From: Escherichia coli | Lineage (GTDB): Bacteria; Pseudomonadota; Gammaproteobacteria; Enterobacterales; Enterobacteriaceae | Reading direction: 5' to 3' (one strand) | Length of the DNA stretch: 64,000 nt | Assembly: GCF_013315695.1 (NCBI RefSeq) | Contig: NZ_CP054353.1 | In this document: piece by piece, positions 3,646 through 24,910 of the stretch | Numbering within the stretch: position 1 is the stretch's first letter | How the letters are laid out: each line of letters opens with the position of its first letter | The notes under the pieces: model-generated | The model's database searches: none | What the model was told of the DNA's origin: nothing | The model's input: only the letters and a program-made list of their open reading frames with translations | Position numbers and translations under genes: made by a program

Positions 3646-4656
3646 ATGACGACGATGCTGGAAGTGGCGAAGCGCGCCGGGGTTTCAAAAGCGACCGTTT
3701 CCCGCGTGCTTTCAGGTAATGGCTACGTCAGCCAGGAGACTAAAGATCGCGTGTTTCAGGCGGTAGAAGAGAGCGGTTACCGCCCAAACTTGCTGGCGCG
3801 CAATCTGTCGGCGAAGAGTACTCAGACGCTGGGGCTGGTAGTGACCAACACGCTTTACCACGGCATTTATTTTAGTGAACTACTGTTTCATGCCGCGCGA
3901 ATGGCGGAAGAGAAAGGGCGACAGTTGCTATTGGCAGATGGTAAACACAGCGCCGAAGAAGAGCGCCAGGCGATTCAGTATCTGCTGGATTTGCGCTGCG
4001 ACGCCATTATGATTTACCCGCGTTTTTTAAGCGTGGATGAGATTGATGACATCATTGACGCACACAGTCAGCCGATAATGGTGCTTAATCGCCGCCTGCG
4101 CAAAAACACCAGCCATAGCGTCTGGTGCGATCATAAACAGACCAGCTTTAACGCCGTGGCAGAGTTGATAAACGCCGGACATCAGGAGATTGCTTTCCTT
4201 ACCGGCTCGATGGATTCCCCCACCAGCATTGAACGTCTTGCCGGGTATAAAGACGCGCTGTCGCAGCATGGTATTGCGCTCAATGAAAAACTTATCGCTA
4301 ACGGTAAATGGACGCCCGCCAGCGGGGCCGAAGGGGTAGAAACGTTGCTCGAACGTGGGGCTAAATTTAGCGCGTTAGTTGCCAGTAACGACGATATGGC
4401 GATAGGTGCGATGAAAGCGTTGCACGAGCGCGGCGTAGCGGTGCCAGAGCAGGTGTCAGTTATCGGATTCGATGATATCGCAATTGCCCCCTATATCGTT
4501 CCGGCGCTCTCCAGCGTAAAAATTCCGGTGACTGAGATGATTCAGGAAATTATTGGACGGCTGATTTTTATGCTCGATGGTGGGGATTTCTCACCGCCGA
4601 AAACCTTCAGCGGAAAACTGATCCGCCGCGGCTCCCTCATTGCTCTTTCGCAATAA
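3646..4656 (+). CDS. ascG: LacI-family transcriptional repressor of the asc operon
   Basis: N-terminal HTH (MLEVAKRAGVSKATVSRVL) and periplasmic-binding-like fold; divergent from ascFB; start chosen at MTTML. Confidence 0.9.
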   Translation: MTTMLEVAKRAGVSKATVSRVLSGNGYVSQETKDRVFQAVEESGYRPNLLARNLSAKSTQTLGLVVTNTLYHGIYFSELLFHAARMAEEKGRQLLLADGKHSAEEERQAIQYLLDLRCDAIMIYPRFLSVDEIDDIIDAHSQPIMVLNRRLRKNTSHSVWCDHKQTSFNAVAELINAGHQEIAFLTGSMDSPTSIERLAGYKDALSQHGIALNEKLIANGKWTPASGAEGVETLLERGAKFSALVASNDDMAIGAMKALHERGVAVPEQVSVIGFDDIAIAPYIVPALSSVKIPVTEMIQEIIGRLIFMLDGGDFSPPKTFSGKLIRRGSLIALSQ

Positions 4657-5484: not shown

Positions 5485-7725
5485 ATGGCAAAAAACACAT
5501 CTTGCGGTGTCCAACTGCGTATTCGTGGCAAAGTGCAGGGCGTCGGTTTTCGTCCGTTTGTCTGGCAACTGGCACAGCAATTAAATCTTCACGGCGATGT
5601 TTGTAATGACGGCGATGGCGTAGAAGTCCGGCTGCTGGAAGCCCCGGAAACGTTTCTTGTTCAATTGCATCAGCACTGCCCGCCACTGGCGCGTATTGAT
5701 AGCGTCGAGCGTGAGCCGTTTATCTGGTCACAACTGCCCACTGAGTTCACCATCCGCCAGAGCGCGGGTGGCGTCATGAATACGCAAATTGTTCCCGATG
5801 CCGCGACTTGCCCTGCTTGCCTTGCCGAAATGAATACCCCAGGCGAACGACGCTGGCGTTATCCGTTTATCAACTGTACCCACTGCGGCCCACGTTTCAC
5901 CATTATTCGCGCGATGCCTTACGACCGCCCGTTTACCGTGATGGCGGCGTTTCCGCTGTGTCCGGCCTGTGACAAAGAATATCGCGACCCGCTCGATCGT
6001 CGCTTCCACGCCCAGCCGGTGGCCTGCCCGGAGTGTGGCCCACATCTTGAATGGGTAAGTCATGGTGAACATGCAGAACAAGAGGCGGCATTACAGGCAG
6101 CTATCGCACAGTTAAAAATGGGCAACATTGTCGCCATCAAAGGGATTGGCGGATTTCATCTCGCCTGCGATGCGCGTAACAGTAACGCGGTGGCGACACT
6201 ACGGGCACGCAAACATCGCCCGGCGAAACCGCTGGCGGTCATGTTGCCAGTGGCTGACGGTTTACCTGACGCTGCGCGCCAGTTGCTTACCACGCCCGCC
6301 GCGCCGATTGTTCTGGTGGATAAAAAATACGTTCCTGAGCTTTGTGATGATATCGCCCCTGGCCTTAACGAAGTTGGGGTGATGTTGCCTGCGAACCCGC
6401 TCCAGCATTTGCTGTTACAGGAACTGCAATGCCCGCTGGTGATGACCTCCGGCAACCTGAGCGGTAAACCACCAGCTATCAGCAACGAACAGGCGCTGGC
6501 GGATTTGCAGGGGATTGCCGACGGATTCTTGATACATAACCGCGACATCGTGCAGCGGATGGATGATTCGGTGGTGCGCGAAAACGGCGAAATGCTGCGC
6601 CGTTCGCGGGGGTATGTGCCGGATGCGCTGGCTTTGCCTCCGGGCTTTAAAAATGTTCCGCCTGTGCTGTGTCTCGGTGCGGATCTGAAAAACACCTTCT
6701 GCCTGGTGCGCGGCGAACAAGCGGTGTTGAGTCAGCATCTGGGCGATTTAAGTGACGATGGCATCCAGATGCAGTGGCGCGAAGCGTTACGCCTGATGCA
6801 AAACATCTACGATTTCACTCCGCAATACGTTGTGCATGACGCGCATCCGGGCTATATCTCCAGCCAGTGGGCGCGCGAAATGAATCTGCCGACGCAAACG
6901 GTACTGCATCATCATGCCCACGCGGCGGCGTGTCTGGCAGAACATCACTGGCCGCTGGATGGCGGTGATGTCATTGCGTTGACGCTCGACGGTATCGGTA
7001 TGGGGGAGAATGGCGCTTTGTGGGGCGGCGAGTGTCTGCGGGTGAACTATCGCGAATGCCAGCATCTGGGCGGCTTGCCTGCGGTGGCGCTTCCGGGTGG
7101 CGATTTTGCGGCGAAGCAGCCGTGGCGTAACCTGCTGGCGCAGTGCCTGCGCTTTGTGCCGGAGTGGCAGAATTACCCTGAAACGGCAAGTGTGCAACAG
7201 CAAAACTGGAGCGTGCTGGCGCGGGCCATTGAGCGTGGAATTAACGCGCCGCTGGCGTCGTCGTGTGGGCGTTTGTTCGATGCTGTGGCGGCGGCACTGG
7301 GCTGTGCGCCAGCCATGTTAAGTTATGAAGGTGAAGCGGCTTGCGCCCTCGAGGCGCTGGCGGCTTCGAGCCAGGGAGTGACGCATCCGGTGACGATACC
7401 GCTGGTGGACAATCAACTGGATCTCGCCACTTTCTGGCAGCAGTGGCTGAACTGGCAGGCACCGGTTAATCAACGCGCGTGGGCGTTTCATGATGCGCTG
7501 GCGCAGGGGTTTGCCGCGTTGATGCGTGAGCAGGCCACGATGCGCGGTATCACTACGCTGGTATTTAGCGGTGGGGTTATTCATAACCGATTGCTGCGTA
7601 CACGCCTGGCGCATTATCTCGCTGATTTCACATTGCTCTTTCCACAGAGTTTACCGGCGGGCGATGGCGGGTTGTCTCTGGGGCAGGGGGTTATTGTTGC
7701 GGCGCGCATCCTGCATGCTGCATAG
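5485..7725 (+). CDS. hypF: [NiFe]-hydrogenase maturation carbamoyltransferase HypF
   Basis: Acylphosphatase-like N-terminus ([10 protein letters not shown]), two CxxC...CxxC zinc-finger pairs, YrdC-like and Kae1-like C-terminal domains; start trimmed to MAKNTSCGV. Confidence 0.92.
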
Positions 7726-23923: not shown

Positions 23924-24205
23924 ACCCTCAAAATTTCTCCTTCACTCTATAGTCTTTTCGCTTTACTCCCGTTCATTCAACTTAAGTCTCCATTTTTTTG
24001 CATTACTGCTATCTGTCAGACCTCCGTTTTTCTGTTGATAAAACACTCTTTTTGACGTTTTTACAGACTAATTGAGCGTGAAGTGTGCAAACGATAAAAG
24101 TGTGGGAAAAATTGTTTGACTTATAAGTCTCAGAAAGTAATATGTGCGCCACGCAGCGACGATGAGCGATAAACAAGCTCTTCGAAGCACTCGTAAGAGG
24201 CGTGT

Positions 24206-24298
24206 GGTGAGGTGGCCGAGAGGCTGAAGGCGCTCCCCTGCTAAGGGAGTATGCGGTCAAAAGCTGCATCCGGGGTTCGAATCCCCGCCTCACCGCCA
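24206..24298 (+). tRNA. serV: tRNA-Ser (anticodon GCU), long variable arm
   Basis: 93-nt sequence GGTGAGGTGGCCGAG...GGTTCGAATCCCCGCCTCACCGCCA with anticodon loop CUGCUAA. Confidence 0.95.
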
Positions 24299-24301
24299 TT
24301 T

Positions 24302-24378
24302 GCATCCGTAGCTCAGCTGGATAGAGTACTCGGCTACGAACCGAGCGGTCGGAGGTTCGAATCCTCCCGGATGCACCA
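24302..24378 (+). tRNA. argV: tRNA-Arg (anticodon ACG)
   Basis: 77-nt GCATCCGTAGCTCAG...GGTTCGAATCCTCCCGGATGCACCA with anticodon ACG. Confidence 0.95.
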
Positions 24379-24440: not shown

Positions 24441-24517
24441 GCATCCGTAGCTCAGCTGGATAGAGTACTCGGCTACGAACCGAGCGGTCGGAGGTTCGAA
24501 TCCTCCCGGATGCACCA
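24441..24517 (+). tRNA. argY: tRNA-Arg (anticodon ACG), identical copy
   Basis: Identical 77-nt tRNA preceded by an identical 62-bp spacer. Confidence 0.95.
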
Positions 24518-24579: not shown

Positions 24580-24656
24580 GCATCCGTAGCTCAGCTGGAT
24601 AGAGTACTCGGCTACGAACCGAGCGGTCGGAGGTTCGAATCCTCCCGGATGCACCA
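24580..24656 (+). tRNA. argZ: tRNA-Arg (anticodon ACG), identical copy
   Basis: Identical 77-nt tRNA preceded by an identical 62-bp spacer. Confidence 0.95.
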
Positions 24657-24718: not shown

Positions 24719-24795
24719 GCATCCGTAGCTCAGCTGGATAGAGTACTCGGCTACGAACCGAGCGGTCGGAGGTTCGAATCCTCCCGGATGCACCA
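24719..24795 (+). tRNA. argQ: tRNA-Arg (anticodon ACG), identical copy
   Basis: Identical 77-nt tRNA preceded by an identical 62-bp spacer. Confidence 0.95.
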
Positions 24796-24888
24796 TATTC
24801 TCCGAAATCTTCAGCAATGAAGGTATCGAAGAGGTAGCGATATTAACCGCACGCCAGCAGCGGCCCGAAGGGCGAACGCCAGTGAGTC

Positions 24889-24910
24889 ATCCTCCCGGAT
24901 GCACCATATT
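24889..24910 (+). repeat. Direct repeat of the tRNA-Arg 3' end (atcctcccggatgcaccatatt), 93 bp downstream of argQ
   Basis: Exact 22-bp copy of the last 17 nt of argQ plus 5 nt of its 3' flank. Confidence 0.8.

Follow-up and report, generated by a model that had tools for sequence, protein, structure and literature searches.

Organization of the serV-argVYZQ Locus

The window in this study is the whole 64-kb stretch (64,000 nucleotides) of Escherichia coli DNA analyzed. Its + strand carries, in this order, alaS-csrA-serV-argV-argY-argZ-argQ-yqaB-yqaA-gshA. The five tRNA genes of this cluster were all identified with ARAGORN on the + strand. serV, which is the first gene of the operon, encodes tRNA-Ser(GCU) (24206-24298) and was also recognized by the Rfam tRNA model with 56.8 bits. 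It is followed by four genes for tRNA-Arg(ACG), which are argV (24302-24378), argY (24441-24517), argZ (24580-24656) and argQ (24719-24795), the last gene of the array. These four genes are all identical and form part of a 139-bp direct repeat family whose members share 100% identity. The three spacers between them are likewise identical (62/62/62 bp), and all are without the tRNA-linked repeat (TLR) described below. The distance from argQ to yqaB is 258 bp. Judged from its sequence, a promoter-like site found by consensus scan upstream of serV (TTGACT, a 16-nt spacer and TAATAT; 24116-24143, +) is likely the promoter of the operon.

In addition to this cluster, ARAGORN called a tRNA-Met(CAT) gene at 58596-58671 (+) of the window. 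Judged from the gene order of K-12, this gene may be ileY, presumably encoding tRNA-Ile2. The CAT anticodon of tRNA-Ile2 is modified and reads AUA.

The 22-bp Direct Repeat Downstream of argQ

A pattern search of the window found two exact copies of ATCCTCCCGGATGCACCATATT on the + strand, at 24778-24799 and 24889-24910. The left copy consists of the last 18 nt of argQ, from A59 of the T loop to CCA, and the trailer TATT. The right copy consists of 18 nt of a tRNA-Arg pseudo-3' end, which closes the TLR, followed by the same trailer TATT. The original prediction, in which an exact 22-bp copy of the argQ 3' end and its flank lay 93 bp past argQ, was thus confirmed for both the repeat and its coordinates. 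Its statement that the enclosed 93 bp carry no ORF is also consistent with our results, as the ORFs overlapping this interval were only short mechanical ones of 21-41 aa.

The 3' ends of argV, argY and argZ each differed from the 22-mer at 2 positions, because their trailer is TCTC rather than TATT. No match to the 22-mer was found in dinucleotide-preserving shuffles of the window (0/100), and chance is ruled out as the cause of the repeat. The similarity between the two copies extends past the 22 bp, with 28 of 30 positions being identical between ATCCTCCCGGATGCACCATATTCTCCGAAA and ...TATTATCCAAAA. The right flank of the K-12 element reads TCTT and limits the exact repeat to 19 bp; with TATT in this position, the repeat of the window reaches 22 bp.

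Identification of the Element as raQ

The lead to the family of this element came from a BLAST search of the TLR interior against a phage collection, which returned Salmonella genome contigs, one of them annotated as 'RtT RNA'. TLRs were first seen at tyrT in 1978, and 22 TLRs have been catalogued at ten loci of K-12, including raV, raZ and raQ at the arg locus (PMC8144298). Their hallmark is an 18-19-bp 3' end that is identical to that of the upstream tRNA or rRNA gene (PMC8144298). As cited therein, the catalogue of raQ/raZ/raV goes back to Rudd (1999), and the 178-bp repeats of the tyrT operon, or rttR, to Egan and Landy (1978) and Bosl and Kersten (1991). Moreover, the supplementary table for the strain that lacks all 22 TLRs (delta-22) lists 'argY/Z/Q, raQ/Z/V' among its deletions (PMC8144298). 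Given that raQ/Z/V are named there together with argY/Z/Q, the element following argQ is raQ.

In the window, the raQ-type TLR (RtT family) occupies 24796-24906 on the + strand, as delimited by end-to-end alignment with the terminal TLRs of K-12 and of strain WP4-S17-ESBL-03 (L004), in which there was one 22-nt gap. It starts at the base after the CCA of argQ, lies on the same strand as argQ, and its last 18 nt (24889-24906) are identical to the last 18 nt of argQ, which is the ending expected of a TLR. Similar to raQ, raZ and raV of K-12, the window copy is found at the same locus, starts immediately after the CCA of argQ and ends with the same 18-nt pseudo-3' end. The sequences are also alike, except for a 22-bp deletion and a few substitutions. 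The window allele, which lacks GGCACCAGGGAGGATAACGTTG, is 111 nt long, whereas the K-12 element is 133 nt long.

The explanation of the repeat is therefore an ordinary one that is already in the literature, and the element itself is already known; as the end of a member of a known family (TLR/RtT; raQ), it was overlooked in the first reading of this sequence. The arg-locus TLRs are unannotated in the K-12 RefSeq record, and a literature search on argQ/argZ/serV returned nothing relevant. Rfam searches of the window region at E<=1 returned the tRNAs and chance matches to plastid families, with RtT absent among them. RtT emerged only once intact alleles of other strains were searched. The Rfam model of RtT (RF00391) did span its full length on the intact arg copies of K-12, with 22.8-31 bits (E 0.0033-0.48). 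These scores are below the gathering threshold of 45 bits, so that the arg copies, as a divergent subfamily, fall outside RF00391 when the cut-off of Rfam itself is applied. With the same model, four tyrT copies scored 133-137 bits, and the two copies that follow a Salmonella tRNA-Pro scored 99-100 bits.

From an alignment of 27 distinct Arg-type TLRs (3' domains only), which represent E. coli, Salmonella and about 20 other taxa, we built a covariance model, R1. Its only match in the 64 kb was at 24819-24906 (32.5 bits, E=1.3e-6). R1 also matched the tyrT RtT copies with 30-31 bits (E ~3e-6), the tRNA-Pro copies with 48 bits (E 5e-11), the tRNA-Lys copies with 49-72 bits (E 3e-11 to 5e-18) and the TLR of rrnB (L009 543-627) with 19.4 bits (E=0.0075). 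The homology between the interior of the window copy and other TLRs is partial, as 22 bp of the conserved region have been deleted.

Comparison with Other TLRs

When read directly, the core AACGTTGC-N4-GCAACGGCCCGNAGGGCG was present in Tyr-, Pro-, Lys- and 5S-linked copies. The common core can be written as (A/G)ACGTTGC-loop-GCAACG(G/A)CCCGNAGGG and is followed by a variable third hairpin. Each copy ends in about 18 nt of its own upstream gene, which encodes tRNA-Tyr, -Pro, -Lys, -Arg or 5S rRNA.

Similar to RtT at tyrT (RF00391), the arg-locus element follows a tRNA gene and possesses the core AACGTTGC-loop-GCAACGGCCCGAAGGGCG with a variable third hairpin. In both, the last 18-19 nt of the cognate tRNA form the end of the element and are paired with an internal complementary strand. 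Different from the arg-locus element, however, the cognate tRNA at tyrT is that for Tyr, and a T-arm-like AAGGTTCGA as well as a small extra hairpin are retained at tyrT, both of which are missing from the Arg type of E. coli.

RrA, RrB and RrF, which are located between the dual terminators of rrnA, rrnB and rrnD (PMC8144298), belong to the same family: the core GAACGTTGCGAAGCAACGGCCCGGAGGG is recognizable, and an 18-bp repeat of the end of the upstream gene closes the element. They are linked to 5S rRNA rather than to a tRNA, and their repeat consists of the last 13 nt of 5S rRNA and 5 nt of its trailer. RrA, RrB and RrF bind Hfq and CsrA in vitro, whereas the tRNA-linked TLRs are predicted not to bind CsrA, with all 19 of them scoring < 0.01 with a CsrA-binding predictor (PMC8144298). 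The tRNA-linked TLRs have no known function (PMC8144298).

Conservation and Predicted RNA Structure

The core was searched for in one genome per species with a pattern that included hairpins 1 and 2. It was found in at least 120 loci, nearly all of them in Enterobacterales; the others, also Gammaproteobacteria, were in Orbaceae, Marinobacter, Marinobacterium and Alloalcanivorax. Among the matches listed, 107 of 151 cores had the 3' end of the nearest upstream tRNA repeated within 80 nt downstream, over 10 nt or more and mostly over 18-19 nt. The tRNAs behind these 107 copies were Pro(UGG), Arg(ACG), Lys(UUU), Tyr(GUA), Pro(CGG) and Arg(CCG).

The original prediction had proposed to check whether the repeat is conserved, and it is: the element was also found at this locus in about 20 further enterobacterial taxa that were sampled. 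There, the pseudo-3' end tracks the local variant of tRNA-Arg, which is CCTCCCGGATG, CCTCCTGGATG or CTTCCTGGGTG. In Escherichia, Enterobacter, Citrobacter and Brenneria it was ATCCTCCCGGATG, and in Serratia and Pseudescherichia it was ATCCTCCTGGATG. The third variant, ATCTTCCTGGGTG, was exact in Yersinia and slightly degenerate in Hafnia and Rahnella. It was also observed that, across the 27 Arg-type TLRs with their three variants, the internal pairing strand shifts with the variant of the pseudo-3' end (GGGAGGAT, AGGAGGAT and GGGAAGAT). That the pseudo-3' end and its pairing strand change together implies either selection on the structure or continuing gene conversion.

In the predicted fold, the pseudo-3' end AUCCUCCCGGAUGC pairs with GCACCAGGGAGGAU and thereby closes a junction of three hairpins. 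The z-scores of intact Arg-type TLRs ranged from -4.3 to -5.4, and none of 200 shuffled sequences was as stable (0/200). In the alignment of 27 sequences, 96% of the cells were paired, compared with 29-51% in controls in which the pairing partner was slid. The closing helix contained compensatory GC-to-AU changes in 5 and 2 sequences, and hairpin 3 contained changes on both sides in 5 and 7 sequences. The closing pairing is thereby preserved across genera. As the search pattern had fixed hairpins 1 and 2, their conservation carries no independent weight. The Rfam consensus of RtT pairs the equivalent strands in the tyrT copies.

The Window Copy Is a Deletion Allele

The window copy is the terminal copy of strain WP4-S17-ESBL-03 minus the 22 bp GGCACCAGGGAGGATAACGTTG. 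Alignment placed the junction of this internal deletion at 24851-24852 (+), and the same junction was found in 95 of 5,426 E. coli genomes. The lost segment comprises the 5' strand of the closing helix and the 5' half of hairpin 1. With its 5' strand deleted, the closing helix to the pseudo-3' end is absent from the window copy. The remaining core hairpin 2, GGCCC-GAA-GGGC, was located at 24862-24873 (+) and is invariant in the 27-sequence alignment, but it is part of the search pattern. The z-score of the predicted fold was -1.83 for the window copy, compared with the range given above for intact copies. Thus, the window copy looks like a decaying allele, and if TLR RNA is functional, this function has probably been lost from it.

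A small ORF behind an SD-like AGGGAGGAT in intact copies was also considered and rejected, as its only start gives 2 codons. The segment concerned is deleted in the window.

Variation of the TLR Module among E. coli Genomes

When 5,426 complete E. coli genomes were searched with Megablast, the argQ-yqaB interval proved variable in length. The tRNA-Arg genes of K-12 are separated by spacers of 198/62/198 bp, its argQ and yqaB are 280 bp apart, and a TLR follows three of its four tRNA-Arg genes, namely argV, argZ and argQ. Strain 13TMH22 has spacers of 197/196/198 bp and a TLR after all four. By comparison, the three internal positions are all empty in the window, while K-12 has raV and raZ there. 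Every long interval contained the same module of about 133 bp, which extends from directly after CCA to another copy of ATCCTCCCGGATGCACCA; past the module, the ordinary 62-bp spacer or the yqaB flank picks up again. Given that the module occurs up to four times in the array, the 22-bp repeat is a module boundary and not the mark of a single event at argQ. The copy number and composition of the array vary by recombination between its repeated units.

The frequencies of the terminal alleles were estimated from a score-ranked, evenly spaced sample of 60 genomes, and these percentages are rough. The intact 133-bp TLR was found in about 80% of the sample. About 10% lacked the element precisely, with 147 bp from argQ to yqaB (L010, L011), and about 5% carried a 70-bp deletion at a GCACCA microhomology (L013). 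The window-type 22-bp deletion is the minority allele whose frequency in the full set is given above. The hexamer that opens the internal pairing strand of the TLR is also that of the tRNA 3' end. As for the 70-bp deletion, it is recurrent in raQ; in AR_0114 (L013), the internal GCACCA is fused to the GCACCA of the pseudo-3' end, with 70 bp lost, and 240-bp spans were also seen in the survey.

Insertion by an integrase at tRNA genes leaves direct repeats of the tRNA 3' end that start in the T loop. The original prediction had offered an att-like scar of integration or excision at argQ as one of two readings of the repeat. In such a scenario, an integrase would have inserted DNA into the 3' end of argQ, and most of this insert would since have been lost. 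The intact tRNA would then be attL, the 22-bp copy attR, and the 93 bp between them a residue. The attL/attR pairs of tRNA-integrating phages and islands, such as those of P4-family integrases, do resemble the arg locus in their direct repeat of the tRNA 3' end from the T loop and in their presence/absence polymorphism. The argQ repeat starts at A59 of the T loop, as att repeats do, but so do all tRNA-linked TLRs, and this feature does not discriminate between the two. Similarly, the precise TLR-less sites resemble an unoccupied attB, but deletion between the 19-bp direct repeats, of which precise absence is the expected product, would account for them equally well; an integrase is therefore not required.

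The prediction had also suggested a search for genomes with an island inserted at argQ. The query was the junction of a TLR-less genome, consisting of the last tRNA-Arg and 100 bp of the yqaB-side flank. In 5,423 of 5,425 E. coli genomes, both halves of this junction were found within about 590 bp of each other, and no integrase-bearing island was found at the argQ site in any of the 5,425. The two exceptions are both IS insertions. GPEC1054 (L012) has an IS10-type element with a 9-bp target duplication, TGCACCATA, at the junction of tRNA and TLR, and in KTa005 (L140), an IS1 that is itself interrupted by an IS3 lies downstream of the TLR.

The interior of the element also argues against an att scar. 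Different from the residue between attL and attR, it is a structured core common to other stable-RNA loci, and the module is also found after internal tRNAs of the array; its homologs follow argV, argZ and the genes for tRNA-Tyr, -Pro, -Lys and 5S rRNA. The presence of the element at the same locus in other enterobacterial taxa, with a pseudo-3' end that tracks the local tRNA, is unlike an inert scar, and the covariation of its structure points in the same direction.

BLAST of the TLR interior against plasmids and phages returned bacterial chromosomes or contigs, short unannotated fragment records and short weak matches only. The core itself was found in one viral contig only, where it lies on host flank beside tRNA-Lys. 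The 18-mer of tRNA-Arg was found in 5 viral contigs, in three of which it lies within Arg(TCG)-type tRNA genes of phage tRNA arrays, and no convincing attP candidate for this 18-mer was found in the viral contigs. A recent att event at argQ is close to refuted, and the att scar is highly improbable as an account of this repeat. In contrast, it is very likely that the element after argQ is the raQ TLR, that the repeat is the normal end of this module and that the window carries a minority deletion allele of it, rather than the scar of a phage or island.

Two of the viral contigs deserve a separate description. In one of 92.8 kb (IMGVR_UViG_651053022_000007; L016), a lone tRNA-Arg(ACG) at 6969-7095 has pieces of the spacer of the E. 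coli array on either side (aaatttcccgat ... tctcttacttgatatggctttagtggcggtatcaa), and it sits at the end of an ORF of 1,092 aa that, by eye, resembles a type I restriction R subunit. This unit looks like an arg-array unit captured on a phage or phage-plasmid contig and not like an attP. In the other, of 72.6 kb (L017), the exact 18-mer at 3905-3922 lies outside tRNA genes, with no integrase-sized ORF nearby. This match is probably fortuitous, as, judging roughly from the size of the collection, about one such match would arise by chance.

Proposed Processing and Recombination

The RtT RNA of tyrT and RrA/B/F are reported to be transcribed with their operons and released as discrete RNAs by processing, and the terminal repeat of TLRs was proposed by the authors to be recognized for RNase E cleavage in the same way as the end of the upstream gene (PMC8144298). 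In our analysis, both ends of the TLR repeat the context of CCA followed by a U-rich trailer. By analogy with the TLRs of tyrT and rrn, the arg-locus module is most likely co-transcribed with the tRNAs, and the processing by RNase E and exonucleases that matures the tRNAs would excise the module as a separate small RNA. We base this suggestion on the published work on those TLRs and on the consensus scan, which found no terminator-like site between argQ and the TLR. Owing to the 22-bp deletion, such an RNA from the window allele would lack half of hairpin 1 as well as the strand that pairs with the pseudo-3' end.

At the DNA level, the repeated tRNA ends of 18-19 bp and the repeated tRNA units serve as substrates of recombination. 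Recombination at these ends and units accounts for alleles with a TLR after 0-4 tRNA-Arg genes as well as for precise empty sites.

As a catalogued repeat in a decayed variant, the window copy has little weight as a discovery. It does suggest that, when a tRNA 3' end is found duplicated next to a tRNA or 5S gene of enterobacteria, a TLR should be considered first and an att site only afterwards. The RefSeq record omits the arg-locus copies, and the Rfam RtT model misses them at its threshold.

Anatomy and Possible Origin of TLRs

The other explanation offered in the original prediction was that the second copy is a by-product of the tandem tRNA duplication. In this case, it would be the remnant of a fifth tRNA-Arg cut by unequal crossover, and the 93 bp would be degenerate spacer or tRNA. 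Part of this explanation stands. The units of the array do vary by recombination, as is evident from the spacer lengths of the window, K-12 and 13TMH22, and some TLRs retain recognizable pieces of tRNA. In Yersinia thracica and Y. nurmii (L105, L106), the TLRs contain 23-37 nt that are identical or near-identical to the local tRNA-Arg and end at the T loop with ...GGTTCGA. A core of about 63 nt follows GGTTCGA, after which the tRNA sequence resumes from A59 and continues through CCA. Moreover, many Tyr, Pro, Lys and Arg(CCG) copies have GTTCGA upstream of the core, at a fixed distance of 23-24 nt.

The part that does not stand is the core. The core of about 63 nt is not tRNA-Arg and is common to the TLRs of unrelated tRNAs and of 5S rRNA, and the arg TLR of E. 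coli shows no significant similarity to tRNA-Arg beyond the last 18 nt (best local score 11). A core that is common across loci cannot be explained by a local truncation, and tandem duplication is therefore refuted as a complete explanation. It is nearer to the truth than an att scar, but it is incomplete, and it is very unlikely that the repeat is purely a by-product of this kind.

Based on these sequence comparisons, the tRNA-linked TLRs look like partial copies of tRNAs whose T loop is interrupted by a core common to different tRNA families. In the Arg type that is common among enterobacteria, the core directly adjoins a T-stem-like GGGAGG, and this type appears to have been shortened. An attempt to extend this anatomy to the 5S-linked TLRs, either as interrupted copies of 5S rRNA or through a universal 18-nt rule, was abandoned, as alignment gave no 5S remnant and the repeat there is made of 5S sequence and trailer in the proportions given above.

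One speculative and rather unlikely origin of the family is that TLRs are footprints of a small mobile or templated insertion into copies of stable-RNA genes at a fixed point near the 3' end, which would be the T-loop position 58/59 in the tRNA-linked ones. The product would have been kept as a structured RNA resembling a minihelix of acceptor and T arm. Such an origin is suggested by the break of the Yersinia copies after GGTTCGA, by the fixed T-arm offset in the Tyr, Pro, Lys and Arg(CCG) copies and by the covariation of the closing helix with the local tRNA. If it were true, the argQ repeat would be an old, domesticated product of insertion and not the att scar of a phage.

The evolution of the pseudo-3' end with the local tRNA, the compensatory changes of the closing helix and the interrupted T loop of the Yersinia copies provide handles on the function and spread of TLRs.

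Finally, like those of the two Yersinia species, the TLR of Serratia grimesii (L066) has a stretch of its cognate tRNA-Arg (23-37 nt in this group), from the region of the anticodon arm to GGTTCGA of the T loop, immediately before the core, and its tRNA sequence continues from A59 past the core. Different from E. coli, a terminator hairpin lies between the real tRNA and the TLR in Yersinia and Serratia.
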